Source of the DNA: Fastidiosibacter lacustris
GTDB lineage: Bacteria; Pseudomonadota; Gammaproteobacteria; Francisellales; Francisellaceae
Assembly: GCF_003428155.1 (NCBI RefSeq)
Contig: NZ_QLIR01000005.1
Location: 84,312-116,311, forward strand
Direction: 5' to 3'
Length of the DNA: 32,000 nucleotides
A program made the translations under genes and the position numbers. The notes under the pieces are model-generated. The model saw only the letters and a list, made by a program, of their open reading frames with translations, had not been told where the DNA came from and made no database searches. Shown here one piece after another: positions 1 through 25,021 of the stretch. Numbering within the stretch: position 1 is the stretch's first letter; every line of letters starts with the position of its first letter.

Positions 1-88
1 TAACACTTGCTTTTTCAAGTGTATCAGGGTTATTAGCATTTCCATGAGGTGTATAAGGTTTAAGCTCTGCCGTACTTAACCATTGCAT
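1..88 (-). CDS. 5' end of an unidentified protein gene running off the left edge (MQWLSTAELKPYTPHGNANNPDTLEKASV...)
   Basis: ATG at 88-86 on the minus strand with AAGGAA 5 nt upstream. The frame stays open to position 1. Too short to assign a family. Confidence 0.3.
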   Translation of the reverse strand, partial: MQWLSTAELKPYTPHGNANNPDTLEKASV

Positions 89-340
89 AGTGATTCCTTT
101 GGCATTTCATTGAGCAAATAATTAAGTTAAATAATTGCTTATAACGATAGCTTATAAAATTGGAATATCTAAAGATCTTTAGCACAAATCATGCTGCCTC
201 AAGGTCTAGATGATGAATTAGTTATGAAACTAAATGGGAGATTTTTGATTATATTGGGGCTAAAGTAAGATTAAGAATAAGCAGTATATTAATTGTATTA
301 GTCTGGATATAATTGGTTTATGAATAATCTGAAAAGATGT

Positions 341-2395
341 TCAAGCTTTGATATATTCATCAGTTTTGTTTAACCAACGATGAATGATTTTCTCTGCGTG
401 CTTAGGATATTGTTTGATAATTGCTTCAGCAATATTAGTCACATCATCAAAAAGTGCTTGGTGTTGGCTTAAATCAGCAACTTTAAATTGAATTCCCCCT
501 GTTTGATTAGTTCCAAATATATCACCAGGACCTCTTAATTTTAAGTCTTCTTCGGCAATTACGAAGCCATTTTGCGTTTTACGCATAAGTTCTAAGCGTT
601 TTTTGGCAGTATTGGATAAAGGGGAGTGATATAGTAATATACAATTACTTTCTTTGTTACCGCGCCCAACACGTCCACGTAATTGATGTAATTGCGATAA
701 TCCAAGACGTTCGGCATTATCAATAATCATAATATTGGCATTGGGTACATCTACTCCAACTTCAATAACTGTTGTTGCAACCAATATATCTAACTCATGG
801 GATTTGAATGCCTGCATGATATCTTCTTTGTGCTGAGCTTTTAGTTTACCATGTATAAGCCCTATGCGAGCGCAAGGTAGCATGTTGCTTAGCATTTCAA
901 AAAGAGATTGGGCATCTTGTAAAGTAATTAGAACCTCTGAACTTTCAATTAAAGGACACACCCAATAAGCTTGACCATTATTGGCAATATGTTGTTCAAG
1001 TCGTGTAATTAGAATTTGCTTTTTAGTTTGGTTTAAAACACTGGTTGTAATCGGTTTACGATTAGGAGGAAGTTCATCAATAATGGAAAGATCTAAATCA
1101 CCATAGACAGTCATTGCTAGTGTGCGTGGGATAGGGGTAGCAGTCATTACAATCTGATGTGGCTGCCAATTTTTAGTTTTAGCTTTTTCAATTAAACTCA
1201 ACCGCTGCTCTACACCAAATCGATGTTGCTCATCAATTATGACTAATCCTAAATTCGGATAGTCAATGTTGTTTTGGAAAACGGCGTGTGTGCCGATAAT
1301 AACACAATTATCTTGATTCTCTATCGTTTTTAAGGCCTCTTTACGCGCCTTAGTCGTAAGCTGTTGAGCAATAAATACTACAGGAATATTAAATATGTTT
1401 AACCAGTTTGTAAGGTTATGATAGTGCTGTTTGGCTAAAATTTCAGTTGGTGCCATCATGACAGATTGTAGTTTATTGTGTGCAGCTTGAATGACTATGG
1501 CGCCAGCAACAACGGTTTTACCTGAACCAACATCACCTTGAACAAGACGTGATGCTGGTTTATTAAGCGTGAAATCATACAAAATCTCATTGATAACGCG
1601 TATTTGAGCTGGGGTAGGTTGAAAGCTTAAAGTTTCTAAAAAAGTTTTTAAAAGCGTATGATTAACGGCAATTCGAGCAGATGAGGTTATTTGATTGTGC
1701 AACCTTGCTTTTTTAGCATTTAAGTTGTGTGCTAACAATTCTTCTAATGCTAAGCGATAGCGTGCGCGAGCACTAAGGTTATATAGGTTATCAAAGTTAT
1801 CGTTTTTTGGGAAATGGAGAGTATGTAATGCTTGATTTATATTTTCTAGTTGATGTTTTTGTAAAAGTGAAAGTGGCATATATTCATCAAGCTTGATTTG
1901 ATCTTTGAGTTGTAAAATTAATTTATAAAAAACGGCAGAGCTTATTCCTTCAATAGTTGGATAAATAGGAATAATATTACCTAATTTTTTACCTTTATCT
2001 TCATCGGTTAAAATTTGCCATTCAGGGTGAGTGATCTCAACAGCATGATGATTATGAACAATCTCACCAAAGCAGCGAATGATTTTACCTTTTTGCAAGA
2101 GTCGTGTTTGATTTGAGTAAAACTTAAATAAGTGCATTTTACAAACGCCACTGCTATCAAAAAAGTAGCAAGTTAAATGTTTTTTACCAATATCATTAAT
2201 ATTGACTTGGCGAATTACACCTTCAATTTGTTGTTTTTCACCAGCTGTAGTATGAGCAATGGGTATAATTGTACGGCGATCTTGATAGTATCTAGGCAGG
2301 TGGAGTAAAAGATCAGTGACTGTATTGATACCAGCTTTATTGAGTTTATTTAAAATAGATTGACCAATACCTTTTAGCGATTTTAACTCTAGCAT
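341..2395 (-). CDS. recG: ATP-dependent DNA helicase RecG
   Basis: 684-aa ORF with an N-terminal wedge/OB region. Walker A GDVGSGKT, DEQHRFG (DEAH-type box), TATPIPRT and QLRGRVGRG helicase motifs. Length and architecture are typical of RecG. Confidence 0.95.
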   Translation of the reverse strand: MLELKSLKGIGQSILNKLNKAGINTVTDLLLHLPRYYQDRRTIIPIAHTTAGEKQQIEGVIRQVNINDIGKKHLTCYFFDSSGVCKMHLFKFYSNQTRLLQKGKIIRCFGEIVHNHHAVEITHPEWQILTDEDKGKKLGNIIPIYPTIEGISSAVFYKLILQLKDQIKLDEYMPLSLLQKHQLENINQALHTLHFPKNDNFDNLYNLSARARYRLALEELLAHNLNAKKARLHNQITSSARIAVNHTLLKTFLETLSFQPTPAQIRVINEILYDFTLNKPASRLVQGDVGSGKTVVAGAIVIQAAHNKLQSVMMAPTEILAKQHYHNLTNWLNIFNIPVVFIAQQLTTKARKEALKTIENQDNCVIIGTHAVFQNNIDYPNLGLVIIDEQHRFGVEQRLSLIEKAKTKNWQPHQIVMTATPIPRTLAMTVYGDLDLSIIDELPPNRKPITTSVLNQTKKQILITRLEQHIANNGQAYWVCPLIESSEVLITLQDAQSLFEMLSNMLPCARIGLIHGKLKAQHKEDIMQAFKSHELDILVATTVIEVGVDVPNANIMIIDNAERLGLSQLHQLRGRVGRGNKESNCILLYHSPLSNTAKKRLELMRKTQNGFVIAEEDLKLRGPGDIFGTNQTGGIQFKVADLSQHQALFDDVTNIAEAIIKQYPKHAEKIIHRWLNKTDEYIKA

Positions 2396-2398
2396 GTC

Positions 2399-3697
2399 CT
2401 ATCTAAACCATGATTTTAGTTTGTTATTAAGTGCATTATTTAGTGCTTTTTCAATAATAGGTTGTAAGTTTTGTTGTAATTTCTGTTGGTTGATTTTAGC
2501 ACTGAAATTTCCATTTTGGTAATTAAGGATATAGGGAATGTGTAAGCTAGGTTCGACTTGAACATTTAATAACAATGGATAATTAAAATATTCCTTGGAC
2601 ACATCAAACTTCCCTGTACCTGTTATGCTAAATTTAGGTGCAAGCCAACTGAGTCTCGTCGTTGTAATCATTGAGTCAACAAATTGACTCTGTACATTTA
2701 AAGTATTTAGCTGGGTATGTTGATTTGGATCTGCATTAAATTTATCGCTGTTTAAGATTGGCAATATTTGGTTTTTTAAGCTCTGAAAGGCGGTTTCAAT
2801 TTCATCACCACTATTTAGTGCAGTGAGTAGTTTGTGAGTTGAGTCAGCAATACTATTTAAATTGATTCCGTTAAGCTTAGCACTATTGGCGTGGATATTG
2901 ATATTACCTTGTAGTTTTTGAAGGTTATCTTGTTGAAGGTCGAAATTAATGTTGAATTGATTAAGTGTGAGTAAAAAACCTTTCATGTCAATAATTTTTT
3001 CAACAGCAATTTTTGGGGCTGAAAATTTACCTTCAGCAGAAAAATGAGGTTTTAGTTTTATTTGCTTGAGTGTACCTATTAGTTCTTCGCCATTAATATC
3101 AAGTGTAATGTTCTCAATATCAGTAACTTTATCGTTATCAGTGATATAAATTCTAGGAACTTTGAGAGACGTAGAGTGATTATTAATAGTAGTTTGTAAT
3201 GTAATATCATCAAACTGAATTGTGTTTGAATATGGATTGAGCGCCATTTGGAAGTTAAAATCATTAAATTCATTGACAAAGCTCCCTTTAATATTATATT
3301 TCTGGTTTTTCTCGAGGACGTTAAGTGTAGGAATTAAAAATTTTATTTTAGTACCAAGTTTAACTTGTCCTTGTTCAAGATCAAGTGACTTAATTGAGTT
3401 ATTGGGATTTATAATAAGGTCAATAAAATTAACTTTAATGGTACCTTGTTGCCAATGACTGGTGAGGATGTTGTTGTTAGTGTTAATTGTAATATTTTGC
3501 CCATCAAGTTGCATTAACCATAAGTTAAATGAAAGCCTGCCATCAATAAGGATATGAACATTGTTGTTCTGACTAAGTTTATTATTAACCCAGTTTTTGT
3601 AATCATTGGGATTAAAAATAAATTTCAACCAGATGAAAAATAGCAACAGAAGAAGCGTAATTGTAAGAAGGAGACTTAATATAAGTTTTTTAACCAT
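2399..3697 (-). CDS. AsmA-family envelope protein (short form)
   Basis: N-terminal membrane anchor MVKKLILSLLLTITLLLLLFFIWL followed by the NPNDYK motif (E. coli AsmA has NPNDFR at the same place). N/Q-rich beta-rich body. I prefer the ATG at 3697 (AAGGAA 5 nt upstream) over the track start at 3727. The stop lies 3 nt before the recG ATG. Confidence 0.75.
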   Translation of the reverse strand: MVKKLILSLLLTITLLLLLFFIWLKFIFNPNDYKNWVNNKLSQNNNVHILIDGRLSFNLWLMQLDGQNITINTNNNILTSHWQQGTIKVNFIDLIINPNNSIKSLDLEQGQVKLGTKIKFLIPTLNVLEKNQKYNIKGSFVNEFNDFNFQMALNPYSNTIQFDDITLQTTINNHSTSLKVPRIYITDNDKVTDIENITLDINGEELIGTLKQIKLKPHFSAEGKFSAPKIAVEKIIDMKGFLLTLNQFNINFDLQQDNLQKLQGNINIHANSAKLNGINLNSIADSTHKLLTALNSGDEIETAFQSLKNQILPILNSDKFNADPNQHTQLNTLNVQSQFVDSMITTTRLSWLAPKFSITGTGKFDVSKEYFNYPLLLNVQVEPSLHIPYILNYQNGNFSAKINQQKLQQNLQPIIEKALNNALNNKLKSWFR

Positions 3698-3817
3698 GGT
3701 TATTCCTTTATCGTCAACTTTCAGCATGAAATTAACAGAATATGTTTGGCATCATGCACTATGTTTTTTATGATAGTCTGAATTATTGACGAATATTGAG
3801 TTTACGCCAAGTTGATT

Positions 3818-4012
3818 ATGACAAAAAAATACCTCAAATATGGAATTCCTTTATTATTAAACATTTGTATAATAGGTTGTGGGCAGATGGGACCATTATA
3901 TTTGCCTTCTAGCGAAAAAAATGAACCTCAAACAAAATCACAGCCAGTGACAAAAACACCACAAGATGTAGGAAAGTGGCAAAATAGCGATGAAATAGAG
4001 TTTTCAAAATGA
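3818..4012 (+). CDS. lptM: LptM/YifL-family small lipoprotein (LPS translocon maturation factor family)
   Basis: Signal peptide with lipobox IIGC, then GQMGPLYLP. This matches the family hallmark C-G-x-K-G-P-L-Y-x-P of E. coli YifL/LptM. Proline/polar tail and about 64 aa, as in YifL. ATG at 3818 preferred over the TTG at 3812. Confidence 0.65.
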   Translation: MTKKYLKYGIPLLLNICIIGCGQMGPLYLPSSEKNEPQTKSQPVTKTPQDVGKWQNSDEIEFSK

Positions 4013-5154
4013 AAATGCAGCTATTAATTATTACAGTAATAGGGATGATTAATCTATCAACTGCTTATGCAGTAAGTCCTGAAAACGCCAAAATTATGGC
4101 AGAAAAATACCGCGCGTTAGCGGAAAGCTATAACAAATTAGCACAAGAATATGAAATGGTAGTAAAGAATGAAGATATGTTAAATAAGACCCCAGCGCTG
4201 ACTATCAAACAAAAAGCAACGGATGATGCAAAAAAAATACAAACTAAGGAATTGAAAGTACAACAACAAAACAAAGATATTCAATCACAGGCAAACGATA
4301 GTACGCCACTAAATCCCTGGTCTGTTGAATTGGAAACACAAAAAGAGATAAATAATGTAACAAAGTCACCAGTTCACACTGTAAGTGAAAATCAAAGTAA
4401 AAGGCTAATAGGTTTAAGTGAACTTATTCTCCCCGAAGGTATTATGGATGATAATATTGAAGTGCAAAAAATACCTAATATTACAGTAGTAGTACCTTGG
4501 AAAGGCACAAGTTTTGGTCTTGGAGGAAGTATCGTTACAGGTAATTCAGCAGCAACAAACTATAATGCCAATGCCAATATTAGTTATAACCCAATTATTC
4601 CTTGGGAAAACACTTTGGTAATGAGTTATTTGTATAATCGTGATGATATGTCAGGTGGAAAAGGAGTTAAAACAAATAAATTTCAAGCATTAGGTACCAC
4701 TTCATGGAATTTTGATAAAAATAATGGTCTTTATGCAAGTTTAAACTACTTAAATGATCAGCTAGATACTTATACCTATCTTCTTACTGAATCGTTTGGC
4801 TATAAGCGACAACTTTACTCAAGGCATAATATGTCACTCAATACAACTTTAGGTCCGAGTTTAACTCAGTCAAAAATAAAAGAATCAGGAGAGTTTGCAA
4901 ATGCGCTGGGTGCACAGAATACAATTAATTATGTTTGGAATTTTACTGACGCATCAAGTTTTAAACAAAACTTTTTAGTGAACTGGACAGCAAGTGACGC
5001 AACAACTTATCAAACAAATAGTACTCTCTCAACAGAGCTATATGAAAACCTGATCTTGCAATTAGGATTTCAAGTAAACGGTAGCAGTTGGGCAAGCAGT
5101 GGTAAAAAACGTATCAATACGGTTACTTCAACAACAATCGCTTATACTTTTTAA
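4009..5154 (+). CDS. DUF481 (YdiY-like) outer-membrane beta-barrel protein with an N-terminal coiled-coil/Q-K-rich extension
   Basis: SPase I signal (STAYA|VS), then about 130 aa of helical, low-complexity K/Q/E region. The C-terminal ~230 aa have alternating-hydrophobic beta strands and a YdiY-like pattern (GGSIVTGNS..., ...SFGYKRQL..., GPSL...). Terminal aromatic ...IAYTF is typical of OMPs. The start ATGA overlaps the lptM stop. Confidence 0.6.
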   Translation: MKMQLLIITVIGMINLSTAYAVSPENAKIMAEKYRALAESYNKLAQEYEMVVKNEDMLNKTPALTIKQKATDDAKKIQTKELKVQQQNKDIQSQANDSTPLNPWSVELETQKEINNVTKSPVHTVSENQSKRLIGLSELILPEGIMDDNIEVQKIPNITVVVPWKGTSFGLGGSIVTGNSAATNYNANANISYNPIIPWENTLVMSYLYNRDDMSGGKGVKTNKFQALGTTSWNFDKNNGLYASLNYLNDQLDTYTYLLTESFGYKRQLYSRHNMSLNTTLGPSLTQSKIKESGEFANALGAQNTINYVWNFTDASSFKQNFLVNWTASDATTYQTNSTLSTELYENLILQLGFQVNGSSWASSGKKRINTVTSTTIAYTF

Positions 5155-5227: not shown

Positions 5228-5677
5228 ATGTCTAAGAAAAAAATCACTTTATCGAACAGGAAGCGTTTAAGTGAGTTACAGACTAAAGCGGTAAAAACAA
5301 ACGCAGATGTTCGTCGTGAACAGATTCAGTCTATGCGTGAAATGCATGTTATGCCTGAAGGGAAGCTTGAGCTTGCAATTGAGCAGATGGTTGCGGATGT
5401 TGTATTTGAGTTGAATAACTTATATCGCCAGTGGAGTCAGCCGCTTGATTATAATCGTTATCGGTATAGCCCAAATGAACGTAATAGAAAGCTATTGAAT
5501 GAGTTAAAGGTATTTTTAAATGAGATAGCGGATTGGCTTATGAGTAAAGGTATTCGTGGTGAGGAGTGCAGGGAAAGGTGTCAGGAAATTGTTGATCGGA
5601 TTTCTCAAGGTTTACGCATAGAAGGGATACCCGTTGGTCATTTACAGTTACATTCTGAAAAGAGACAGGAATTTTAA
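5228..5677 (+). CDS. Hypothetical 149-aa basic, all-helical protein (no family recognised)
   Basis: Long ORF in an otherwise tightly packed region, with the same codon style as its neighbours. The stop is 2 nt before the rlmB ATG. No recognisable motif. Confidence 0.5.
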   Translation: MSKKKITLSNRKRLSELQTKAVKTNADVRREQIQSMREMHVMPEGKLELAIEQMVADVVFELNNLYRQWSQPLDYNRYRYSPNERNRKLLNELKVFLNEIADWLMSKGIRGEECRERCQEIVDRISQGLRIEGIPVGHLQLHSEKRQEF

Positions 5678-6477: not shown

Positions 6478-7005
6478 TTGACGATAGGTTTAAGGGAAAA
6501 GGCTGTGAAGTTTAGAAAATCTAGACCTATGCAATGGGTTGTTTTGATTCTTCTACTATTTATCTTTGTTGGCATTATGATTGAGAATCTGCATACCAAC
6601 CATGAAAGTCAGTTTACACTTAATACCTCTCAACGTCAGGTTCAATTAGATTTAAATGCCTTGTTAGCATCCATTCAAATAAATAGTCAACACAGTGAAA
6701 ATTATCAAGTGGGCTATCATAATTTTGAACAAGGAAACTGTGAATTGGCATATAAACAGGTTCTGCCTTTTGCCAGAAGTGGTGAAACTAATGCTACTCT
6801 AGTGATTGGATTTATGTATGAGTTTGGTTGTGGTGTTAAAGATAGTGCTAAAAAAGCGGCACTTTGGTATTACAGTGGTATCAAACGTAATACTTATAAT
6901 AAGGTTCTAATTTTGCGTGGACTTCATGCTTATAACAACGGTGATTATAATATGGCGGCAGAATGGTTTAGAATGGCTAGTGAGTTAAGTGTTATAAAGG
7001 CGTAA
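6478..7005 (+). CDS. Sel1-repeat (TPR-like) membrane-anchored protein
   Basis: K/R-rich N-terminus plus a TM helix ([16 protein letters not shown]). Sel1-like repeat signatures ([29 protein letters not shown]; [15 protein letters not shown]). The start is uncertain: TTG 6478, GTG 6505 or ATG 6529. Confidence 0.65.
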
Positions 7006-7676
7006 TGAAGATGGATAGGCAACAAGCTTGGCGCGATGTGTTGGCAGAATATAAAAATAGCGAGCGCTTTCAAGATACGTTGGCATTTGTTGCAAATGAA
7101 CGTAAAAAAGGCAAAATAATTTTTCCACAACAACAAGATGTTTTTAATGCGTTTAAGCTGTGTTCATTAGAGAACTTAAAAGTTGTTATTTTAGGTCAGG
7201 ATCCCTATCACAACGTTGGACAGGCACATGGTTTGGCATTTTCAGTGCAAAAAAACGTGATCCCGCCACCCTCATTAGTTAATATTTATAAAGAGCTCAG
7301 TGCAGATATCAATATCAGCGTACCTCAACATGGAAACTTAAGTAATTGGGCAGCACAAGGTGTTTTTTTACTTAATACTGTTCTAACTGTAGAAGCGCAT
7401 AAAGCGCATTCACATGCCAATATCGGTTGGGAGGATTTTACCGATAATGTCATACATATTATTAATAAATATAAAGAGCATGTCGTTTTCATGCTGTGGG
7501 GAGCTCCTGCTCAAAGGAAATCAAGTTTAATTGATGGGAATAAACATCTGATACTAAAAGCGCCTCACCCATCACCATTATCGGCACATCGTGGTTTTTT
7601 TGGTTGTAAGCACTTTTCTCAAGCCAACCAATATTTAAAATTTCATGGAGTAGAACCAATAGATTGGCAGTTGTAG
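7005..7676 (+). CDS. ung: Uracil-DNA glycosylase (family 1)
   Basis: Near-colinear with E. coli Ung: [53 protein letters not shown]. The start overlaps the Sel1 stop (TAATG). Confidence 0.92.
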
Positions 7677-7683
7677 GTACTTT

Positions 7684-7712
7684 TTGATTTTTTTAATTTA
7701 TCAGATTATAAA
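7684..7712 (+). promoter_or_regulatory. Sigma70-like promoter candidate for the arg cluster
   Basis: TTGATT (7684-7689), 17 nt spacer, TATAAA (7707-7712). About 75 nt upstream of the GNAT::argG start. Confidence 0.3.
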
Positions 7713-7788
7713 AATAATGAATTTTATTTATTAATGATCTTTGGTTATCTTTTAAAACCTGTCCCTTAATAAAAAGCAGATTGATGAT

Positions 7789-9615
7789 ATGAAAATATCC
7801 AGTGTTAAAGTTGTAATATCAAATACTGAACATTGTTGTTTTGCAAAAGCAATATCACATGAAATTGCAGAAAGTGCCAAACAAAGAAAAACAGGTATAG
7901 CTATGCGCAGTGTAGATTACTTGCAGACTAAAATGCGTACTCAACATGCGGTGATTGCTATTGACACTGAAAATGAAGAAGTGGCAGGATTTTGCTATAT
8001 TGAGTCTTGGCAGGATAAAAGTTATGTGTCAAATTCAGGACTGATTGTTTTCCCGAAGTATCGCAGTTTAGGTCTAGCAAAAGCTCTTAAGGAAAAGGCT
8101 TTTGAGTTAGCGCGCTTGTATTATCCAAATGCAAGAATATTTGGCCTAACAACCAATCCTGTAGTGATGAAAATCAATTGTGAGCTTGGTTATCAGCCTA
8201 CATCTTTTGCAAAGCTCACGCATGACATGACTTTTTGGCAAGGTTGCCAAAGTTGTGTCAATTTTTCGATTTTGCAATCCAAAAATTATCAGAACTGCTT
8301 ATGTACAGGTATGCTTTATGAACCCAACAACCATAAACCAAAGGAGCAAAAAATGAAGGTCATAGTAGCCTTTAGTGGTGGCTTAGATACAAGCTTTTGT
8401 GTGAAGTATTTGCAACAAGAAAAAAATCTCGAAGTACATACGGTTACTGTAAATACAGGTGGCTTTTCCAAATTTGATCTAGCAGAAATTGAGAAAAGGG
8501 CATATCAATTGGGCGCAACGACTCACCAAAATATTGATGCAACAAATGATTTTTATAATCACTGTGTTAAATATTTAATTTTTGGGAATGTGCTTAAAAA
8601 TAATTGTTATCCGCTTTCTGTTAGTGCAGAGCGTGCGTTCCAATCGATGGTCATTGCTAACAAAGCAAACGAATTGGGTATCAATAAAATCGCTCACGGT
8701 TGCACAGGAGCAGGTAATGATCAAGTACGTTTTGATTTAATGTTCCATATCTTATGTTCGAATGTTGAGATTATTACTCCCATTCGCGATTTATCGTTAA
8801 CTCGCGCGCAAACACAAGCTTACCTTATTAAGCATGGAATTGAATGCTCAGACAAAACAAAAAAATACTCCATTAACAAAGGGCTTTGGGGGACGTCAAT
8901 AGGTGGTGTAGAAACACTTAGCTCACACTTGGCTTTACCTGAAGAAGCTTGGTCAAGTCAGATGACAAAGTCCTTAAGTGATGAAGAAAAGGTGAAGATT
9001 ACTTTCTTAAAAGGAGAACCAATTGCTTTAAATGATGAATTATCTAACCCTATACAGTTAATCAAAAAACTTAATGAACTTGCAAGTTGCTATGCCATTG
9101 GTCGTGATATTCACGTAGGCGATACCATTATTAACATCAAAGGTCGGGTTGGCTTTGAAGCACCAGCACCTATGGTTTTAATTAAGGCACATCATTGCCT
9201 AGAAAAGCATGTTTTAACAAAAGCGCAGTTAAAGCTAAAAGATCAGCTTGCCTGTACTTATGGTGAGATGGTACATGAAGGTCAGTTTATGGATCCTGCA
9301 TTACGTGATATTGAGAACTTTTTAAGCTCAACGCAACTACATGTTAGTGGCAATGTATTTATCAAGCTTAAGCCGTGGTATTTTACAATCACAGGTATTG
9401 AGTCAGATTATGATTTAATGCAGCAGCAAGGTGCACAATACGGTGAAGGAAACACAAGTTTTAGTGGTCAAGATGTAAGAGGGTTTAGTAAAATTTTAAG
9501 TAATCAGCTTGCAGCCTATCATCAGAAGTTGAAGAACAAGCAGAGTAACCAAACAACAAAATTGGTTACTAGTTCGACAGATAAAAAAGCTCACAATGCT
9601 CTATTGGTTAATTGA
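7789..9615 (+). CDS. argG: Fusion protein: N-terminal GNAT acyltransferase domain (aa 1-~185) plus argininosuccinate synthase (aa 189-608)
   Basis: A single uninterrupted 608-aa frame. The N-terminal part has a GNAT core (SGLIVFPKYRSLGLAKALKEKAFELA) and a Cys-rich tail. The C-terminal part starts MKVIVAFSGGLDTS (ATP pyrophosphatase P-loop of ArgG) and carries YSINKGLWGTSIGG. A perfect AAGGAG (8341-8346) sits 6 nt before the internal ATG at 8353. Confidence 0.85.
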   Translation: MKISSVKVVISNTEHCCFAKAISHEIAESAKQRKTGIAMRSVDYLQTKMRTQHAVIAIDTENEEVAGFCYIESWQDKSYVSNSGLIVFPKYRSLGLAKALKEKAFELARLYYPNARIFGLTTNPVVMKINCELGYQPTSFAKLTHDMTFWQGCQSCVNFSILQSKNYQNCLCTGMLYEPNNHKPKEQKMKVIVAFSGGLDTSFCVKYLQQEKNLEVHTVTVNTGGFSKFDLAEIEKRAYQLGATTHQNIDATNDFYNHCVKYLIFGNVLKNNCYPLSVSAERAFQSMVIANKANELGINKIAHGCTGAGNDQVRFDLMFHILCSNVEIITPIRDLSLTRAQTQAYLIKHGIECSDKTKKYSINKGLWGTSIGGVETLSSHLALPEEAWSSQMTKSLSDEEKVKITFLKGEPIALNDELSNPIQLIKKLNELASCYAIGRDIHVGDTIINIKGRVGFEAPAPMVLIKAHHCLEKHVLTKAQLKLKDQLACTYGEMVHEGQFMDPALRDIENFLSSTQLHVSGNVFIKLKPWYFTITGIESDYDLMQQQGAQYGEGNTSFSGQDVRGFSKILSNQLAAYHQKLKNKQSNQTTKLVTSSTDKKAHNALLVN

Positions 9616-9618
9616 AGA

Positions 9619-10596
9619 ATGAATATGATAAAAAACAAAAAAATAAAAGTAGGGATTATAGGAGGTGCTGGTTATACGGCAGGAGAATTATTACGTATCT
9701 TAACCTACCACCCTCACGTTAATATAGACTTTGTACACAGTGATTCAAATCAAGGTAAACCAATAAAAAATGTACATCGTGATTTTTATTTAATTGATGA
9801 AAAACGCGTGTTTGATCATATGCTTAATCCAGAAGTTGACGTTGCTTTTTTGTGTGTTGGTCACAATCAGTCAAAGTCAGTCTTAAAAAACGTAATATTT
9901 TCAAATACCACTAAACTTATTGATTTAAGTCAAGATCATCGTAATAGTTCAGAGAATCCAGAATTTGTATATGGGCTTGCCGATGTTTATCCAAATGAAA
10001 TCAAGCAAGCAACTAAAATTGCCAATCCTGGTTGTTTTGCAACAGCCATTCAGCTTGGTGTAATGCCATTTTGCCAATATGTGCAAGATGATGTTCATGT
10101 CACAGCGATTACAGGTTCAACAGGGGCTGGCGCTAAGTTAAGTGATACTTCCCATTTTAGTTGGCGAGCCAATAACCTTTCAGTTTACAAAAGCTTTGAA
10201 CATCAGCATATGAATGAGATATGCCGAGGTTTAGGCTTAAATAGAAATCAGTTGCAATTTGTTCCGATGCGAGGTGCATTTACCCGTGGTATATTGGCAT
10301 CGATTTATTTTAAATCATCATTAAATGGGATAGAAGCAAGAAACTTGGCACAAGCCTTTTACCACAAGGTCGAATTTGTTAAGGTGAGTGAAGAAGAATC
10401 AGGTCCAGATTTAAAAAGTGTGGTCAATACCAATTACTGTTTGCTATCAGTTAAAAAGTATGGTGATTATTTGCATATTATTAGTGTGATTGATAATTTA
10501 ATTAAAGGTGCGGTAGGGCAAGCCGTACAAAATATGAATTTAATGTTTGGCTTTGATATAAGCTGTGGTTTGACATTGAAGCCAATTGCTTTTTAA
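9619..10596 (+). CDS. argC: N-acyl-gamma-glutamyl-phosphate reductase
   Basis: N-terminal Rossmann motif KVGIIGGAGYTAGELLR, catalytic-Cys motif ANPGCFATA, C-terminal DNLIKGAVGQAVQNMNLMFG. Confidence 0.9.
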   Translation: MNMIKNKKIKVGIIGGAGYTAGELLRILTYHPHVNIDFVHSDSNQGKPIKNVHRDFYLIDEKRVFDHMLNPEVDVAFLCVGHNQSKSVLKNVIFSNTTKLIDLSQDHRNSSENPEFVYGLADVYPNEIKQATKIANPGCFATAIQLGVMPFCQYVQDDVHVTAITGSTGAGAKLSDTSHFSWRANNLSVYKSFEHQHMNEICRGLGLNRNQLQFVPMRGAFTRGILASIYFKSSLNGIEARNLAQAFYHKVEFVKVSEEESGPDLKSVVNTNYCLLSVKKYGDYLHIISVIDNLIKGAVGQAVQNMNLMFGFDISCGLTLKPIAF

Positions 10597-10616
10597 GTTG
10601 AAATTAGGAGAAGAGC

Positions 10617-11597
10617 ATGCAACATTATCTTAGTATTAAAGATATAGACAATATTAAAAATGCAATTGAATCGTGTATTGAGATTAAAAAATCACCTTTT
10701 ACTAAGCTACAGCTTGCAAACAATAAAACATTAGGCATCATCTTTCTCAATCCTAGCTTGCGTACCAAAATTTCAACGATTAAGGCTGCACAAAACATTG
10801 GATTAAACGTGTTACCGATTGATGTTAACAATGGCTGGTCACTGGAATTTAGTGAAGGCGTTGTGATGGATACAAATAAACCAGAGCATATCAAGGAAGC
10901 CGCACAAGTTATTGCAAAATATTGCGATATGGTTGCTATTCGTGCTTTTGCTAAGCTTATGGATAAGGAAGAAGATTATAAAGAGCAAATATTTGCCAGC
11001 TTTAAAAAATATACAAATTGCCCGCTTATAAATTTAGAGTCTACCTTACGCCATCCATTGCAAAGCTTGGCAGATATTTTAACAATTGAAGAGTATAAAA
11101 ATATACAAAGCTTAAAAAAGCTTAAAGTAGTGCTAAGTTGGGCTCCGCATGTTAATCCATTACCACATGCTGTCGCAAATTCATTTGCTGAGAGTATGCA
11201 GTTGATGGATTATGAGTTTGTTATCACGCATCCTAAAGGCTATGAGCTGGATCCTGAGTTTACAAAAAATGCCTCAGTTTGTTACGATCAAGATGAAGCA
11301 TTAAAAGGAGCGGATTTTATTTATGTTAAAAATTGGTCAAGTACTAAATATTATGGCAAGGTGACCAATACAGATCAAAGTTGGATGATCAATAAAAACA
11401 AACTTAAAAACGCGCCTTATGCCAAAGTGATGCACTGCTTACCTGTTCGTAGAAATTTAGTGATTGCAGATGATGTATTGGATTCTGAGCAATCAATAGT
11501 TATTGATCAAGCAGAAAATCGCCTTTATGCAGCGCAATATGTGCTGTCAGAAATCATTAAAACGCTTGATAAAAAAGAAAATAGGCTTAAATCTTGA
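10617..11597 (+). CDS. argF: N-acyl-L-ornithine carbamoyltransferase (ArgF'-type; predicted N-succinylornithine specific)
   Basis: Transcarbamylase motifs PSLRT, HPLQSLAD and HCLPVRRN. The N-terminal 110 aa closely parallel my recollection of the Bacteroides fragilis SOTCase (IKKxxF..NKTL..IFxNxSLRT...DxxKPEH...RAFA). Pro89 in DTNKPEH occupies the specificity position. Strong SD AGGAG before the ATG. Confidence 0.8.
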   Translation: MQHYLSIKDIDNIKNAIESCIEIKKSPFTKLQLANNKTLGIIFLNPSLRTKISTIKAAQNIGLNVLPIDVNNGWSLEFSEGVVMDTNKPEHIKEAAQVIAKYCDMVAIRAFAKLMDKEEDYKEQIFASFKKYTNCPLINLESTLRHPLQSLADILTIEEYKNIQSLKKLKVVLSWAPHVNPLPHAVANSFAESMQLMDYEFVITHPKGYELDPEFTKNASVCYDQDEALKGADFIYVKNWSSTKYYGKVTNTDQSWMINKNKLKNAPYAKVMHCLPVRRNLVIADDVLDSEQSIVIDQAENRLYAAQYVLSEIIKTLDKKENRLKS

Positions 11598-11682
11598 GAA
11601 ATAGAATAATGTAATTCCACTTTACTTATCATATATGACAGATTTATAGAGATATCATGTAAAACCTGGAAAATTTTGGAAG

Positions 11683-12510
11683 ATGAAAAATCAAATCAAT
11701 AAAATAAAAATCATTAAAATTGGTGGTCGTGTTATGGATGACACACAGCAATTAGAACAGTTCTTTGGTGCATTATCTAAGCAAAACGTACCTTTTATTT
11801 TGGTGCATGGTGGGGGTGATAAGGTCAATAAACTAGTTGAAAAATTTCACATTACACCACAGTTTGTTGATGGTCGACGTATAACCGACAATAAAAGCTT
11901 GGAAGCTGTTGTGATGATGCTTGCTGGATGGATAAATAAAGACATCGTGGCAAGTTTACAAGCAAAGGGTCTCAATGCATGGGGTTTAACGGGAGTGGAT
12001 GCAAATTTAGTCATGTGTGATAAACGTTGCATGCAAAAGTATGATTTTGGTTTTGTTGGTGATGTAAAGTCGGTTAACGTATCACCTTTGTTAATGCTAT
12101 TAGAACACGGTATAACGCCAGTTTTATCCCCCATTACCCACGATGGTAAAGGGCAGTTATTAAACACTAATGCCGATACCTTTGCCGCAAGCATTGCAAT
12201 AAACTTGGCCATCATTCAAGGTATTGAGATTGAGCTTTATTATTGTTTAGATTTACAAGGTGTGTATGAAAACCTTGATCAGCCTGATTCGTTGATTGCA
12301 GTATTGGATGAAGATAAGTTTAAAGACTGCCATGCTCAAGGCATGATTAAAGAAGGTATGATTCCTAAGCTTCAAAATTGCTTTAGTGCTTTAGAGCGGG
12401 GGGTTAGTAAAATCTATGTGAGTAATGCTACGCAAATAATTCAACTGTTGATAGGCTTGAAGTTTAAAGGTACAGCAATCGTTAAAAAAGAGAAGTCTAT
12501 ACATGTCTAA
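11683..12510 (+). CDS. argB: N-acylglutamate kinase (amino-acid kinase family)
   Basis: IKIGGRVMDD, VHGGGDKVN, NTNADTFAASIA motifs. About 275 aa. Preceded by the only sizeable gap (85 bp) within the arg cluster. Confidence 0.85.
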   Translation: MKNQINKIKIIKIGGRVMDDTQQLEQFFGALSKQNVPFILVHGGGDKVNKLVEKFHITPQFVDGRRITDNKSLEAVVMMLAGWINKDIVASLQAKGLNAWGLTGVDANLVMCDKRCMQKYDFGFVGDVKSVNVSPLLMLLEHGITPVLSPITHDGKGQLLNTNADTFAASIAINLAIIQGIEIELYYCLDLQGVYENLDQPDSLIAVLDEDKFKDCHAQGMIKEGMIPKLQNCFSALERGVSKIYVSNATQIIQLLIGLKFKGTAIVKKEKSIHV

Positions 12511-13600
12511 GATGGTGTTAGAAAATAAAGAAATGCTTAAGGTGAAATGTGATGCTTTAGCCCTACTTAAAGCACTTATTGCTACTCCGTCGCCTTCGAA
12601 ACAAGAGAATAAAACAGCATGCTTATTGCAATCATGGTTAAATGACAAAGGTGTTGATGCCACTTTAATTGGCAATAATGTTTGTGCCAAAAATAAATTT
12701 TTTGATACGTATAAACCATCGATTTTGCTTGTTTCGCATCATGATACGGTGCCCCCCTCGAAAGATTATACAATTGATCCTTACACTCCTTTCATAAAAG
12801 AAGGGAAGCTTTATGGGTTAGGCTCAAATGATGCAGGTGGACCACTGGTGAGTCTGTTAAGTGCTTTTGTTTATTTTTATGATGAGGAGCATTTGCCATT
12901 TAATTTAATGTTTTGTGCAGCAGCAGAGGAGGAGATTTCAGGTAGAAATGGGTTGGAGTTGGCGTTACCATTTTTTGGTGAAATCAATTTTGCAATTGTC
13001 GGCGAGCCCACAAGTATGGCTTTAGCGATTAGTGAAAAAGGATTAATGGTTTGTGATTGTATAGCGTATGGTAAATCAGGACATACGGCAAGAGACGAAG
13101 GTGAAAACGCGATTTTAAAAGCAATTAAAGATATACAATGGTTGACAAACTATAAATTTGACAAAGTATCTCCCAGTTTAGGGGAGATTAAAATGAGTGC
13201 TACCATGATTGAAGCTGGTATTAAGCATAACATTGTGCCTAATAAATGTCATTTTGTTGTCGATGTACGTACAACAGATGCTTATAGTAATGAGGAAGTG
13301 CTAAAAATTATGCAGCAAAATATGCAATCAGAAGTACAGGCGCGTTCAACTCGAATAAAACCAAGTGCAACACCACTGAATCATCCTGTAGTAAAAGCAT
13401 TGCTAGCACAAGGTGTCACAACGTATGGTTCTCCCACGACTTCAGATCAAGCAATTTTGAGTTGTCCTAGTGTTAAATTTTCACCAGGAGATTCAGCACG
13501 CTCGCATACGGCGAATGAATTTATTTATATTCAACAAATTAATGAAGGAATTGCTTTTTTCATAGATTTTTTTAGTACAATGAGGAATATGAAATGGTAG
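12503..13600 (+). CDS. argE: M20-family deacylase (ArgE-like; acetylornithine deacetylase / possible succinyl-citrulline desuccinylase)
   Basis: Metal-ligand motifs SHHDTV, GSNDAGG and AAEEEISG, plus a dimerisation-domain insert. Overlaps argB by 8 nt and argH by 7 nt. Confidence 0.75.
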   Translation: MSKMVLENKEMLKVKCDALALLKALIATPSPSKQENKTACLLQSWLNDKGVDATLIGNNVCAKNKFFDTYKPSILLVSHHDTVPPSKDYTIDPYTPFIKEGKLYGLGSNDAGGPLVSLLSAFVYFYDEEHLPFNLMFCAAAEEEISGRNGLELALPFFGEINFAIVGEPTSMALAISEKGLMVCDCIAYGKSGHTARDEGENAILKAIKDIQWLTNYKFDKVSPSLGEIKMSATMIEAGIKHNIVPNKCHFVVDVRTTDAYSNEEVLKIMQQNMQSEVQARSTRIKPSATPLNHPVVKALLAQGVTTYGSPTTSDQAILSCPSVKFSPGDSARSHTANEFIYIQQINEGIAFFIDFFSTMRNMKW

Positions 13601-15033
13601 AAAAAATAGTAGATAACCAAAAGCAAAAACTATGGGGTGGGCGTTTTAGTGAAGATAACAATCCGTTATTTGTACAATTTAATGCATCGCTTCGTTTTGA
13701 CTACCGTTTGCTAGCTTATGATATTAAAGCGAGTAAAGTTTTTACACATGGACTTTATGATATTAGTGTATTAACACAAGTTGAGCTAAGTGCACTCCAT
13801 CAAGCGCTAGATGAAATTGCAAAAGATAACCAGCAAAACCCCAAGTTGATTCAAGAAGCAATTTGGGAAGGGGTAGAAGACGTACATACTTTTGTTGAGC
13901 AAAGTTTAGTGGAGAAGTTAGGTGATTTAGCGTATAAAGCCAATACGAGTAGATCGCGTAATGAACAAGTTTCATGTGCGACAAGATTATGGGCGTTGGA
14001 TCACATTGATCAAGTTGTTGATCTTATTCAAAATTTGCAACACGATTTGTGTCAACAAGCACAGACCAACATTGATGTTCCACTCATGGGGTATACCCAT
14101 TTACAGCAGGCACAACCTATTACATGGGGTCATTATTTCTTGTCTTTTTATGAAATGCTCAAGCGTGATATTGAAAGACTATCAGATGTCAAAAAACGTG
14201 TGGACATTTCACCTTTAGGATTAGGTGCAATTGCAGGTAATTCGTGGCAATTAGATCGTTATAAAATAGCAAAACAATTAGGGTTTAGTGAAGTTTCAAA
14301 AAATAGCTTAGATGCTGTGAGTGATCGTGATTATATCATCGAATTTATGGCGGCATTGAGTCTTGTTAGTGTACATTTAAGCCGCCTTGCTGAAGATATG
14401 ATTATCTATTCAACAACTGAATTTGATTTACTTGAGATGAGCGATGAAGTAACAACGGGTTCCTCACTTATGCCGCAAAAGAAAAATCCAGATGCAATGG
14501 AACTTGTACGTGGTAAAACAGGACGTATCTATGGTCATTTAATTGCATTATTAACGACGATAAAAGCGTTACCTTCAGGTTATAACAAAGATCTACAAGA
14601 AGACAAAGAAGCATTGTTTGGTGCTGTAGATACAATAATTGATATATTACGGATTACCAAGATTACTATTGCGAGTTTAAAGATTAAAAAAAATAAGGAT
14701 TATAAGCATAGCTTTTGTGTTGCCACCGAACTTGCAGATTACCTTGCTAAAAAAGGTGTACCATTTAGAAAAGCTCATCATATAGTAGGTAAAATTACAC
14801 GCTTTGCATTGAATGAAGGTCGTCCACTTAAAGAGCTAACATTAACCGAATATCAGCGGTTTTTTCCAAACGTTGAACAAGATATTTTTCAAGTGATAAC
14901 GATTGATTTTGCAATCAATAGTAAAAAGGTAATCGGTGGGACAGCAGTTGAGGAAGTTAAGAAACAGCTAGATGTTATAAACTCAAGTATGAGCGTTGAT
15001 TCAGCAAAGGTCGGTATTCAATACACTTTCTAA
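13594..15033 (+). CDS. argH: Argininosuccinate lyase
   Basis: KLWGGRF N-terminus, fumarate-lyase signature GSSLMPQKKNPD, YNKDLQEDKE. Confidence 0.92.
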   Translation: MVEKIVDNQKQKLWGGRFSEDNNPLFVQFNASLRFDYRLLAYDIKASKVFTHGLYDISVLTQVELSALHQALDEIAKDNQQNPKLIQEAIWEGVEDVHTFVEQSLVEKLGDLAYKANTSRSRNEQVSCATRLWALDHIDQVVDLIQNLQHDLCQQAQTNIDVPLMGYTHLQQAQPITWGHYFLSFYEMLKRDIERLSDVKKRVDISPLGLGAIAGNSWQLDRYKIAKQLGFSEVSKNSLDAVSDRDYIIEFMAALSLVSVHLSRLAEDMIIYSTTEFDLLEMSDEVTTGSSLMPQKKNPDAMELVRGKTGRIYGHLIALLTTIKALPSGYNKDLQEDKEALFGAVDTIIDILRITKITIASLKIKKNKDYKHSFCVATELADYLAKKGVPFRKAHHIVGKITRFALNEGRPLKELTLTEYQRFFPNVEQDIFQVITIDFAINSKKVIGGTAVEEVKKQLDVINSSMSVDSAKVGIQYTF

Positions 15034-15073
15034 TTCCAAATATCAATAATTTAAGGTGTTTAGTTGCAATGTT

Positions 15074-15082
15074 TGATATAAT
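15074..15082 (+). promoter_or_regulatory. Extended -10 promoter candidate for gyrB
   Basis: TGATATAAT (TGn + TATAAT) 40 nt upstream of the gyrB ATG. No good -35, which is consistent with an extended -10 type. Confidence 0.3.
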
Positions 15083-15121
15083 TCCGCGTGATTTGTTTTT
15101 AAGTAAAAATGGAGCGACTGA

Positions 15122-17539
<2,418 letters not shown>

Positions 17540-21502: not shown

Positions 21503-23008
21503 TTATCGATTTACATTTGCTGGGGGTAAATAAGCTATTTGAAAACGTATTGGTTGTTGCTTAGGTTTGTGCCTTTCCCATTTAACTTCTTGGTATGGCG
21601 TGATAACTAAATTTGGATATTCATTTAAAATCTCTTTAGAAAAGCTAGATGGGCCTTCCATTTGTGGAATTAAAATAAATACAGCTCCCTTTTCTTGCAA
21701 GTCCCTCATATTAAGTGCTGGATTTAATTTTGGGTTAAAATCAATCAATCCTTCTGGACGATCTTCAGAATACCTTGCCATATAGCTAACTGGACGATTA
21801 TAGCCTGCTACATACTTAAGTGGTGTATGATAACGATCATGCCAAGAATCGGTCATGATTTTAGCAATAGTGCGCGCTGGGTAATTTGCGCTGGAAGTTT
21901 GGCTACGAGATATTGAAACGCTATAACCTATCATTAATAAAATGGTCACTAAGGCGGCTATTAAAATAACTCTATATACTTTAGCTTTAGTTAAAATTGG
22001 TTTGGTCCATACAATTAAAATCACTCCCCATAAGCTTAAAAGAGGAATGCCCCACATCGTATGAACTTTCCAACCCGAAACCATTGAAATAAGCACTGTC
22101 AATAAAAATGGTGCAATACCAACGTAGAATAAGAATCGACGATTATATTGATCAATATAGGGTTTTTCATTTAGCTTAGTTTGTGATGTTGTTTTTCCAA
22201 AATAGGCGAGTAAAAAGACTGCTACAGCTCCGATAAAGGTACCAATTTGCGCAAAGAAAAAATTAATGCCATAGCCGAAATGTTTGGTGAAAAAGCTTGT
22301 TGTATCTGCTGAATGATTTAACTTTGATAAAGAGTATTGAATCGGAACGAAATCATATTTAAGTAGCCAAATTGCATGAGGTGTTGAAATAGCAAAAACA
22401 ATAATAAGTGAAAGATATATCTTGTACTCTTTAAAAAATCTATGGTTTGATTTATCAAAGAGCATAAATAGAAGCATAGCTACTAAGGGGACAGCAGTAT
22501 AGTATTTTGCCATCATTCCAATACCAGCTATTATGCCTAAGTAAAGCCAGTACTTTAACCGGTTAGTTGTTAAGCTTCGGTAGAAATATAAAAACATAAG
22601 TGGCCATAGCCCAAGCTCACAAGCATTGTCGTTAAAATCTATCACCCCTAAATTGTAGTATTGGATAGCAACTAAAATAATCACTGCGATTAAGGCTAAA
22701 TAATCGTTTTTAAGGATCATTCGCCCTAAACGCCATACTGACCAGACTGCTAAAAGTACCATCATTTGAGAGAGTAAATAAACGCTCCAATCGCGATCAC
22801 CACTCATCCAAAGTGCTATTTTTGTTAAAAGTGCATTAAACCACGGATCTCTTGGATAGCCCCATTGCAATACTTGTCCCCACATAGCTCCTTCTGTTGA
22901 ATCCATTGGTGTAACAAACCTCACTATGGATGGAGTTATGACCCAAAGCGCCGCATAGATAATAAAAAATGACCATAACAGATAACTTGGTTTTAGAAAT
23001 TTTGGCAT
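21503..23008 (-). CDS. Glycosyltransferase family 39 / ArnT-PMT-like polytopic membrane glycosyltransferase
   Basis: About 11-12 predicted TM helices. First periplasmic loop has an acidic motif (PMDSTEG), then ...GMMAKYYTA... as in PMT_2/ArnT-like enzymes. A C-terminal ~130-aa soluble domain. Confidence 0.65.
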   Translation of the reverse strand: MPKFLKPSYLLWSFFIIYAALWVITPSIVRFVTPMDSTEGAMWGQVLQWGYPRDPWFNALLTKIALWMSGDRDWSVYLLSQMMVLLAVWSVWRLGRMILKNDYLALIAVIILVAIQYYNLGVIDFNDNACELGLWPLMFLYFYRSLTTNRLKYWLYLGIIAGIGMMAKYYTAVPLVAMLLFMLFDKSNHRFFKEYKIYLSLIIVFAISTPHAIWLLKYDFVPIQYSLSKLNHSADTTSFFTKHFGYGINFFFAQIGTFIGAVAVFLLAYFGKTTSQTKLNEKPYIDQYNRRFLFYVGIAPFLLTVLISMVSGWKVHTMWGIPLLSLWGVILIVWTKPILTKAKVYRVILIAALVTILLMIGYSVSISRSQTSSANYPARTIAKIMTDSWHDRYHTPLKYVAGYNRPVSYMARYSEDRPEGLIDFNPKLNPALNMRDLQEKGAVFILIPQMEGPSSFSKEILNEYPNLVITPYQEVKWERHKPKQQPIRFQIAYLPPANVNR

Positions 23009-24801: not shown

Positions 24802-25021
24802 AGGAAACAAAAATCACTTACTTCACATGTATTCCTTAAGGAGTATCACAACGTTGGAAACGCAACACGCAGAAGATTGAGCGTAAATCTTTAAACGTTT
24901 AGAACGAGGATAAAGCGCCTTGTGAGGAAAACTATCTGTTTCTCAAAAAGTGAGCTAATGCGTGATGCATGCACTGTAATTGGTCTTTATATCAACCAAA
25001 TTGAATGGGGACGGGGTATAT

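Follow-up and report, generated by a model that had tools for sequence, protein, structure and literature searches.

How did a gammaproteobacterium come to carry, in the midst of its housekeeping genes, an arginine biosynthesis cluster that looks as if it belonged to another phylum? The question is raised by the arg cluster of Fastidiosibacter lacustris (Gammaproteobacteria, Thiotrichales, family Fastidiosibacteraceae in the literature that we used), which we analyzed within a stretch of 32,000 nucleotides (assembly GCF_003428155.1, contig NZ_QLIR01000005.1, positions 84,312 to 116,311 of the forward strand), referred to as the window in this text. Our answer has three parts that we consider likely to hold together: a Bacteroidota-type arg block was transferred into an ancestor of the Fastidiosibacteraceae, it encodes an arginine pathway with succinylated intermediates, and its acyltransferase of the GNAT family has become fused to argininosuccinate synthase (ArgG).

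A preliminary description of the locus, made from the sequence alone, had placed six co-oriented arg genes between ung on the 5' side and gyrB on the 3' side. All six open reading frames (ORFs) are found on the plus strand at 7789-15033, and family scans back their identities. Three of the products (the first ORF, the M20 protein and ArgH) have identical counterparts among the NCBI proteins of F. lacustris. The elements discussed below are as follows.

7677..7788, plus strand: intergenic region between ung and the cluster, 112 nt as read from the sequence, the presumed operon promoter
7789..9615, plus strand: ArgA2::ArgG fusion, a single ORF of 608 amino acids (aa) with GNAT and ArgG domains
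7789..8328, plus strand: GNAT domain of the ArgA2 type, residues 1 to about 180; predicted N-succinylglutamate synthase, first pathway step
8329..8352, plus strand: short linker rich in K, E and Q, with an internal Shine-Dalgarno (SD) motif, AAGGAG, at 8341-8346
8353..9615, plus strand: ArgG domain starting at a conserved internal ATG (Met189); argininosuccinate synthase (TIGR00032)
9619..10596, plus strand: argC (TIGR01850, 275 bits)
10617..11597, plus strand: argF', acylornithine carbamoyltransferase of the knotted type, predicted N-succinylornithine transcarbamylase
11683..12510, plus strand: argB, N-acylglutamate kinase (TIGR00761, 196 bits), predicted N-succinylglutamate kinase
12503..13600, plus strand: M20 metallohydrolase of the ArgE/DapE family (TIGR01910), predicted N-succinylcitrulline desuccinylase (ArgE')
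13594..15033, plus strand: argH, argininosuccinate lyase of the canonical, non-Bacteroidota type (TIGR00838, 562 bits)

The overlaps reported for these genes are real for two pairs (8 nt between argB and the M20 gene, 7 nt between the M20 gene and argH), and the remaining gaps measure 3, 20 and 85 nt. The motifs that had been quoted are likewise all present, namely PSLRT, HPLQ and HCLPVRRN at residues 46, 146 and 273 of ArgF', YSINKGLWGTSIGG at residue 360 of the fusion and NPGCFATA at residue 136 of ArgC.

The proposal that this is a Bacteroidota-style cluster stands for GNAT, ArgG, ArgC, ArgF', ArgB and M20, and falls for ArgH. When compared with proteins of Bacteroidota and of Escherichia coli, the GNAT domain shows 48–54% identity to GNATs encoded directly 5' of argG (in Flavobacterium, Bacteroidales and other loci) and finds no hit in E. 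coli. The corresponding values are 49–58% against 23% for ArgG, 42–51% against 31% for ArgC and 35–47% against 31% for ArgB; the M20 protein is 44–55% identical to Bacteroidota M20 proteins at the same cluster position and 26% identical to E. coli ArgE, and ArgF' reaches 48–55% (E. coli not compared). The proteins of Flavobacterium resemble those of other Bacteroidota classes to about the same degree. The order of the genes also agrees: Flavobacterium clusters read GNAT, argG, argC, argD (sometimes with extra genes), argF', argB, M20, argH, which is the order in the window.

Neighbor-joining trees with 200 bootstrap replicates, rooted on N-acetylornithine transcarbamylase (AOTCase) for ArgF' and on E. 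coli for ArgG, ArgC and M20, place these proteins inside the Bacteroidota. In the ArgF' tree, the gammaproteobacterial sequences were monophyletic in 200/200 replicates and sister to all Bacteroidota in 0/200; Flavobacterium is their neighbor, and B. fragilis is among the lineages that branch more deeply, although the tree does not settle which group is sister. The Bacteroidota themselves formed a monophyletic group in just 40/200 (ArgG), 0/200 (ArgC) and 21/200 (M20) replicates. Placement of ArgF' or ArgG among the canonical gammaproteobacterial ornithine transcarbamylase (OTC) and ArgG clades was not seen in these trees, and no characterized acetyl pathway was encountered.

We also compared the composition of 7789-15033 with that of its flanks. 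The GC content at third codon positions (GC3) is 0.285 in both, and the codon-usage distance of the cluster lies within the range of the flanks. A compositional island was thus rejected (GC, GC3 and codon usage all equal the flanks), and there is no sign of a recent transfer; the transfer would therefore be ancient. The anciently transferred operon that had been suggested for this organism fits both results, nesting within the Bacteroidota and fully ameliorated composition. A single Bacteroidota-to-gammaproteobacteria transfer, followed by full amelioration and rearrangements, would be the best reading of these data.

How far does the cluster extend among relatives? The closest homologues of ArgF' are found in Cysteiniphilum (78–79%), Facilibium (64%) and metagenome-assembled genomes (MAGs) labeled Francisellaceae (63%). 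After the family's own sequences, every named match among the 120 listed belongs to the Bacteroidota (55–59%), and none comes from other Proteobacteria; the top GNAT matches likewise contain no proteobacterial homologue. Scanning species-representative genomes with the fusion protein retrieved loci in Caedibacter taeniospiralis (71% identical to the F. lacustris protein), six genomes that are Cysteiniphilum or Cysteiniphilum-like (about 69%), Fangia hongkongensis (66%) and two MAGs (66–69%), next to 70 Bacteroidota-type loci, mostly from Flavobacterium, at about 50%. The cluster or its marker genes thus occur in all five genera of the Fastidiosibacteraceae (Caedibacter, Cysteiniphilum, Fangia, Facilibium and Fastidiosibacter; in Facilibium, ArgF' and ArgH are encoded on one 10.4-kb contig), and also in two more divergent metagenomic lineages, L084 (GC 32%) and L085/L086 (GC 39%). 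Across the genera, the cluster proteins are 48–81% identical. The cluster is non-canonical, as had been stated, but it is a property of the whole family and not of one genome.

Some of the surroundings in relatives deserve mention. A gene for a PlaA-like GDSL lipase lies directly 5' of the arg cluster in Cysteiniphilum (L003, L006) and Fangia (L010), and in Cysteiniphilum carB, an ABC-F ATPase gene and a FadL-like gene follow further upstream and pyrG downstream. The ung/gyrB context of F. lacustris differs from this arrangement, so the cluster must have been relocated at least once within the family. In L084, positions 1-4302 upstream of the cluster encode dapB, dapA, a dapD-like tetrahydrodipicolinate succinylase, a lysA-like decarboxylase and an AstE/AspA-family gene, followed by a YoeB/YefM toxin-antitoxin pair; the AstE/AspA-family product, which resembles succinylglutamate desuccinylase, might act as desuccinylase in the succinyl-diaminopimelate lysine pathway. 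Three MAG contigs labeled 'Bradyrhizobiaceae' (L068), 'Bifidobacterium' (L076) and 'Chitinophaga pinensis' (L034) carry typical Bacteroidota-type clusters with split GNAT and argG genes, and L034 groups tightly with Flavobacterium (70–84% identity). Their taxonomic labels are probably binning or labeling errors.

The next question is which acyl group the pathway uses. ArgF' consists of the Pfam domains OTCace_N and OTCace and satisfies the transcarbamylase core motifs SxRT, HPxQ and HxLP. Among solved structures it scores 342 bits to the N-succinylornithine transcarbamylase (SOTCase) of B. fragilis (1js1/2fg6) and about 170 bits to the Xanthomonas AOTCase, and it aligns with the former from end to end, including the proline-rich WAPHxxPLP loop and the Trp of the 80's loop (W74). 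These matches bear out the earlier assignment to the acylornithine type rather than to classical OTC. The protein appears to belong to the knotted transcarbamylase subgroup, the knot itself being expected from homology.

Criteria to separate SOTCases from AOTCases were taken from a 2015 review of transcarbamylases (PMC4581275) and from the GapMind papers. AOTCases are marked by Glu92, Asn185 and Lys302 (X. campestris numbering), SOTCases by A/S/P/V/Q, Pro and V/I/E at the respective positions (PMC4581275). An alignment to both solved enzymes gave P89, P183 and V282 for ArgF', corresponding to B. fragilis positions 90, 181 and 282, so that ArgF' is of the SOTCase type at all three discriminators and has none of the three AOTCase residues. 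The first of these, Pro89 (nt 10881-10883), is identical to B. fragilis Pro90, and throughout the gammaproteobacterial clade this position is occupied by P, A, V or T, never by E. Further conserved residues are W74, E141, H178, K238 and R278 (W75, E142, H176, K236 and R278 in B. fragilis). The succinyl carboxylate is said to be anchored by H176, R178 and R278 in the B. fragilis enzyme. As the preliminary description had guessed, the chemistry is probably that of succinyl compounds, with ArgF' specific for a succinylated substrate.

The other enzymes are compatible with this assignment. The best matches of the GNAT domain are standalone Bacteroidota GNATs of 190–240 aa, to which it is 52–62% identical, and it keeps all 52 invariant columns of the family alignment; its membership in the ArgA2 group was judged against GNATs of Bacteroidota clusters. 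BT3761 of B. thetaiotaomicron adjoins argG, shows cofitness with arg genes, is needed for growth when arginine is not supplied, and is repressed by arginine; it has been proposed as an N-succinylglutamate synthase (PMC8121099, PMC7311316) and called 'ArgA2' (PMC9026213). According to a description of 2017, this type of GNAT occurs only in Bacteroidetes and Caldithrix (PMC5317091). An AlphaFold (AF2) model of the domain (predicted local distance difference test score, pLDDT, 86) finds its best PDB matches in the GNAT domain of N. gonorrhoeae N-acetylglutamate synthase (NAGS; 2r8v) and in M. tuberculosis ArgA (5yge/5yo2), followed by acetyltransferases acting on glutamate analogues. The modeled fold supports a role as glutamate N-acyltransferase at the level of the fold only, and the choice of acyl-CoA is a prediction.

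The family alignment also reveals five invariant cysteines, C69, C153, C156, C170 and C172 (GCQSC...NCLCTGM). Of these, the last four lie at the domain's C-terminal end and might make up a metal site of four Cys, of which we saw no mention in the literature consulted. A 396-aa metagenomic protein (P0407) consists of a tandem duplication of the ArgA2-type domain with the Cys motif in both copies.

For ArgB, the B. fragilis protein has been reported as an N-succinylglutamate kinase (PMC7311316). The M20 protein would fit the role of N-succinylcitrulline desuccinylase proposed by GapMind. Among solved deacylases it scores 348 bits to PDB 3ct9 and less than 60 bits to every other one. The 3ct9 structure is probably that of a B. 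thetaiotaomicron protein, possibly BT3549.

Taken together, these assignments outline the following route. The GNAT domain would acylate glutamate, most likely with succinyl-CoA, and ArgB and ArgC would turn N-succinylglutamate into the semialdehyde. A transaminase encoded outside the window would make N-succinylornithine, which ArgF' would carbamoylate to N-succinylcitrulline. The M20 hydrolase would then strip off the succinyl group, and ArgG and ArgH would take citrulline to arginine.

In the preliminary description, the GNAT gene placed directly before argG was counted among the Bacteroidota features. The order is indeed that of Bacteroidota; however, the two are not separate genes here but an in-frame fusion with Acetyltransf_1 at residues 50–110 and an ArgG domain matching TIGR00032 with 289 bits. 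GNAT and ArgG form one ORF in 13 of 13 gammaproteobacterial-type loci and two genes in 70 of 70 Bacteroidota loci. In all ten gammaproteobacterial loci of the genome scan the fused ORF is 582–630 aa long, and the genes of L084 and L085 are fused as well. A word-indexed homologue search with the GNAT domain alone omitted the 608-aa protein and the fusions of the family, although the 608-aa protein is a cluster representative in the collection; we put this down to the prefilter, with which single-domain queries may miss long multidomain proteins, and used an exhaustive search of 1.84 billion representatives (clusters at 50% identity) instead. Only two clusters span the GNAT/ArgG junction, a fragment of the gammaproteobacterial type and a 588-aa protein from CP003605.1 (Blattabacterium). 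A shared origin of the two fusions was rejected, as the gammaproteobacterial and Blattabacterium sequences grouped together in 0/200 replicates; the nearest relatives of the Blattabacterium fusion are unfused Flavobacterium genes, and its junction contains neither Met nor SD motif. Apart from this independent case, the fusion is specific to the gammaproteobacterial clade. It would have arisen when the stop codon that separated the GNAT gene from argG was lost.

The linker between the two domains is K/E/Q-rich throughout the clade but differs in length and sequence between genera. The start codon of the former argG (ATG or GTG) has been retained in all 13 fused genes, and an SD core (GGAG, GAGG or AGGA) lies 4–16 nt 5' of this start in 12 of the 13, compared with 5.9% at other in-frame positions; in the window, AAGGAG at 8341-8346 precedes the ATG at 8353. 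This is in a genome where Lys and Glu codons that end in G are the minority. Since both the SD motif and the start codon are conserved, free ArgG suggests itself as a second product, and we infer that it is translated from the internal site on the same mRNA, beside the fusion protein. More doubtful is the further idea that fusion and ribosome-binding site together are a functional device, in which free ArgG is accompanied by a minor GNAT-ArgG species that joins the ArgG oligomers. By analogy with ArgH(A), the acyltransferase of the first, committing step, itself devoid of a regulatory domain, could in this way be tethered to a late enzyme, and a fixed stoichiometry or feedback control would be possible.

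Two of the genes, argH and argD, tell of later remodeling. ArgH shares 44% identity (426 bits) with its E. coli counterpart but only 28–35% with Bacteroidota ArgH, and the canonical and Bacteroidota types fell into separate clades in 200/200 replicates. Its nearest matches outside the family (46–52%) are unnamed or come from Acidobacteriota and Myxococcales. The cluster is therefore a mosaic and not wholly of Bacteroidota descent. Within the gammaproteobacterial clade, ArgH identity declines in the same order as that of ArgF' (Cysteiniphilum, then Caedibacter, Fangia and L085), which suggests that ArgH has traveled with the cluster since early in the history of the clade. In L084, no argH is present at the corresponding cluster position. 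Either the block arrived without argH and was joined to a gene that was already there, or the argH that came from the Bacteroidota was displaced.

As for argD, a gene of 384–391 aa lies between argC and argF' in most Cysteiniphilum loci and in L084. Its product is 45–50% identical to ArgD from Bacteroidota clusters and 32% identical to E. coli ArgD, suggesting that the ancestral transferred block included argD. The gene is missing from the cluster in F. lacustris, where a gap of 20 nt is left, and in Caedibacter, C. halobium, Fangia, L009 and L085. The local incompleteness of the pathway had been noted before; argD is indeed absent from the window, but its absence appears to be a secondary and repeated loss from the cluster, given that relatives keep a Bacteroidota-type copy. 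In F. lacustris, the transaminase step must then come from elsewhere. The block originally acquired would have comprised GNAT, argG, argC, argD, argF', argB and M20, and now stands beside an argH of the canonical type; five of the present genes, with six enzyme functions, would descend from the Bacteroidota-type cluster.

Several observations weigh against this reading and favor others. In an acetyl pathway of the Xanthomonas type, ArgF' would be an N-acetylornithine transcarbamylase, the GNAT domain an N-acetylglutamate synthase and the M20 protein an acetylcitrulline deacetylase. The best NCBIfam model for ArgF', NF003384, does bear the name 'N-acetylornithine carbamoyltransferase', but the score of 277 bits stays below the cutoff of 288; the Cysteiniphilum homologues are named acetylornithine carbamoyltransferase too, but Bacteroidota SOTCases are widely mislabeled as AOTCases (GapMind, PMC7311316). 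Cabys_1732, said to be the sole characterized member of the GNAT family, was termed an N-acetylglutamate synthase with reference to unpublished results (PMC5317091). Moreover, R178, one of the succinyl anchors, is replaced by Asn (N180 in ArgF') in Fastidiosibacter, Caedibacter and Cysteiniphilum, while Fangia, L084, L085 and the Bacteroidota have Lys or Arg and AOTCase has Lys; possibly, this exchange marks a shift in the accepted acyl group. The match to the SOTCase structure is twice as strong as that to AOTCase, however, all three AOTCase discriminators are absent and ArgF' nests inside the SOTCase clade, so that we regard an acetyl pathway as unlikely. With regard to origin, the ArgB tree gives no resolution, and the trees are neighbor-joining trees with distant outgroups that do not pin down the donor lineage. 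There is also no synteny of the flanks with relatives, in which ung, gyrB and the other window neighbors never adjoin the cluster; the single acquisition is accordingly deduced from monophyly and not from genomic position. Could the cluster be native to these Gammaproteobacteria and vertically inherited, or have passed from a gammaproteobacterial lineage into the Bacteroidota? Its flank-like composition, its location among core genes and its presence in every genus of the family would agree with this, as would the succinyl-type ArgF' found in other Gammaproteobacteria such as Steroidobacter (preprint 10.1101/2024.10.14.618325). But the gammaproteobacterial clade lies within the Bacteroidota and is never sister to all of them, the top ArgF' and GNAT matches include no proteobacterial homologue, the ArgA2 family has been reported solely from Bacteroidetes and Caldithrix (PMC5317091), the ArgA of the Steroidobacter-type clusters is of another, unrelated kind, and ArgH has a separate history. 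Such a native origin seems extremely unlikely to us.

Doubts about function can be put more radically. Since the 32-kb window lacks argD and carAB, the pathway is incomplete there, with seven functions in the cluster, and argR is not found either; one may thus ask whether the cluster is a decaying remnant in a fastidious, often host-associated family, with F. lacustris no longer making arginine. The loss of argD between argC and argF', where most Cysteiniphilum loci and L084 have it, and the obligate endosymbiont Caedibacter within the family (PMC7297999) speak for such decay. All six ORFs are intact, however, with catalytic and substrate-binding residues kept, the proteins are conserved across genera to the extent given above, and the translational coupling by overlapping genes is preserved. 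Several independent lineages without argD in the cluster otherwise keep it intact, and class-III aminotransferases are commonly encoded elsewhere, as in E. coli, where ArgD is unlinked and bifunctional. We therefore judge decay to be very unlikely. A milder form of the same doubt concerns the fusion, which would be meaningless if only ArgG were made, from the internal start, and the GNAT stretch were untranslated or a dead remnant. The internal SD motif and ATG are strong, no SD motif is evident before the ATG at 7789, and the NCBI record of the fusion (WP_116963717.1) is named just 'argininosuccinate synthase [Fastidiosibacter lacustris]'. Against this, the GNAT frame is open and 61–74% identical across genera, all residues invariant in the family are kept, including the five cysteines, the structural model is confident, no other ArgA candidate exists in the cluster, and the independent Blattabacterium fusion has no internal Met. 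A dead GNAT stretch is thus hardly credible. The transferred succinyl-type cluster with its fused first enzyme is the reading that we retain.

The remainder of the window is occupied by other genes. Upstream of the cluster are the housekeeping genes recG, rlmB and ung (7005-7676), downstream gyrB (15122-17539), sufA, sufT, coaD, cls, lpoB, acs, an MFS transporter gene and glpT. Neither argD nor argA/argJ, carAB or argR is found within the 32 kb, in agreement with the preliminary description. Seven sizeable flanking ORFs have no NCBIfam match (E <= 1e-10), namely those at 2399-3727 (minus strand), 4009-5154 (plus, with an apparent signal peptide at its start), 5228-5677 (plus), 6478-7005 (plus), 21503-23008 (minus), 23270-24043 (plus) and 24980-26419 (plus). 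A scan of the whole window for Rfam families and tRNAs came back empty. A sigma-70 promoter search of 7677..7788 gave nothing above chance, and promoter and terminator scans of 7500-15300 remained at or below chance. An ArgR operator was considered and rejected: TGAATWWWWATTCA with at most two mismatches occurred 4 times, where chance would give 9.2, no match lies upstream of the cluster, and the 112-nt region between ung and the cluster contains no ARG-box-like site.

If the reading is right, the succinyl-intermediate arginine pathway and the ArgA2 family extend to a whole gammaproteobacterial family, to which Cysteiniphilum, an emerging pathogen of humans, and Caedibacter, an endosymbiont of Paramecium, belong. 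We found no description of arginine synthesis in Fastidiosibacteraceae in the literature searched. A multi-gene biosynthetic operon would have crossed phyla, been fully ameliorated and then been reshaped as two of its genes fused, a different argH was recruited and argD was lost repeatedly, and the conserved internal start in the fused ORF offers a case of two protein products from one gene that is open to testing. There is also a practical side. The names used by NCBI hide the pathway: ArgF' of Cysteiniphilum and Facilibium is called 'acetylornithine carbamoyltransferase' or 'Rossmann-fold NAD(P)-binding domain-containing protein', and the probable desuccinylase 'M20/M25/M40 family metallo-hydrolase'. 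With misleading product names for the fusion, ArgF' and M20, automated reconstruction could report arginine synthesis in these organisms as incomplete.

Among known systems, Bacteroidota already have the pathway with every one of its enzyme families, and this is a clear case of a pathway transferred across phyla and not of new chemistry. The novelty lies in the range of hosts, in an ArgA2::ArgG fusion that is specific to the clade and has kept an internal start, in the mosaic that a canonical argH creates and in argD having been lost repeatedly. The Bacteroidota succinyl pathway, represented by the B. fragilis SOTCase, by BT3761 ('ArgA2'), BT3760 (ArgG) and BT3549 (desuccinylase) and by the Flavobacterium clusters, has the same enzyme set and gene order at 42–58% identity. 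The window differs from it in its gammaproteobacterial host, the fused GNAT/ArgG with an internal start, the canonical ArgH, the missing cluster argD and the exchange of R178 for Asn. The AOTCase pathway of Xanthomonas campestris (PDB 3kzc etc.) likewise relies on a knotted acylornithine carbamoyltransferase, with carbamoylation before deacylation, in a gammaproteobacterial host, but the window ArgF' matches its enzyme with just 170 bits, has P, P and V in place of E92, N185 and K302, and goes with a different ArgA type.

The fusion finds its closest analogy in argH(A) of marine Gammaproteobacteria (Moritella, Vibrio/Alteromonas; PMC1382215), in which a short GNAT-type glutamate N-acyltransferase is also fused to an enzyme of a late step. 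There, however, the partner is ArgH, the GNAT is C-terminal and corresponds to the C-terminal domain of classical NAGS and not to ArgA2, and the pathway is of the acetyl type (PMC1382215). Blattabacterium, a cockroach endosymbiont of the Flavobacteriia, has the only other full-length ArgA2::ArgG fusion among the representatives searched. Its Bacteroidota-type arg cluster (CP003605.1, L081 10001-21068) reads GNAT::argG, argC, argD, carA, carB, argF', argB, M20, with no adjacent argH. The Steroidobacter-type clusters, which we compared by their description, belong to Gammaproteobacteria as well, and succinylated intermediates have been predicted for them from the same ArgF' residue; their first-step enzyme, of the ACG33_RS14135 family, is a predicted alternative N-succinylglutamate synthase that is unrelated to the GNAT of the window (preprint 10.1101/2024.10.14.618325).

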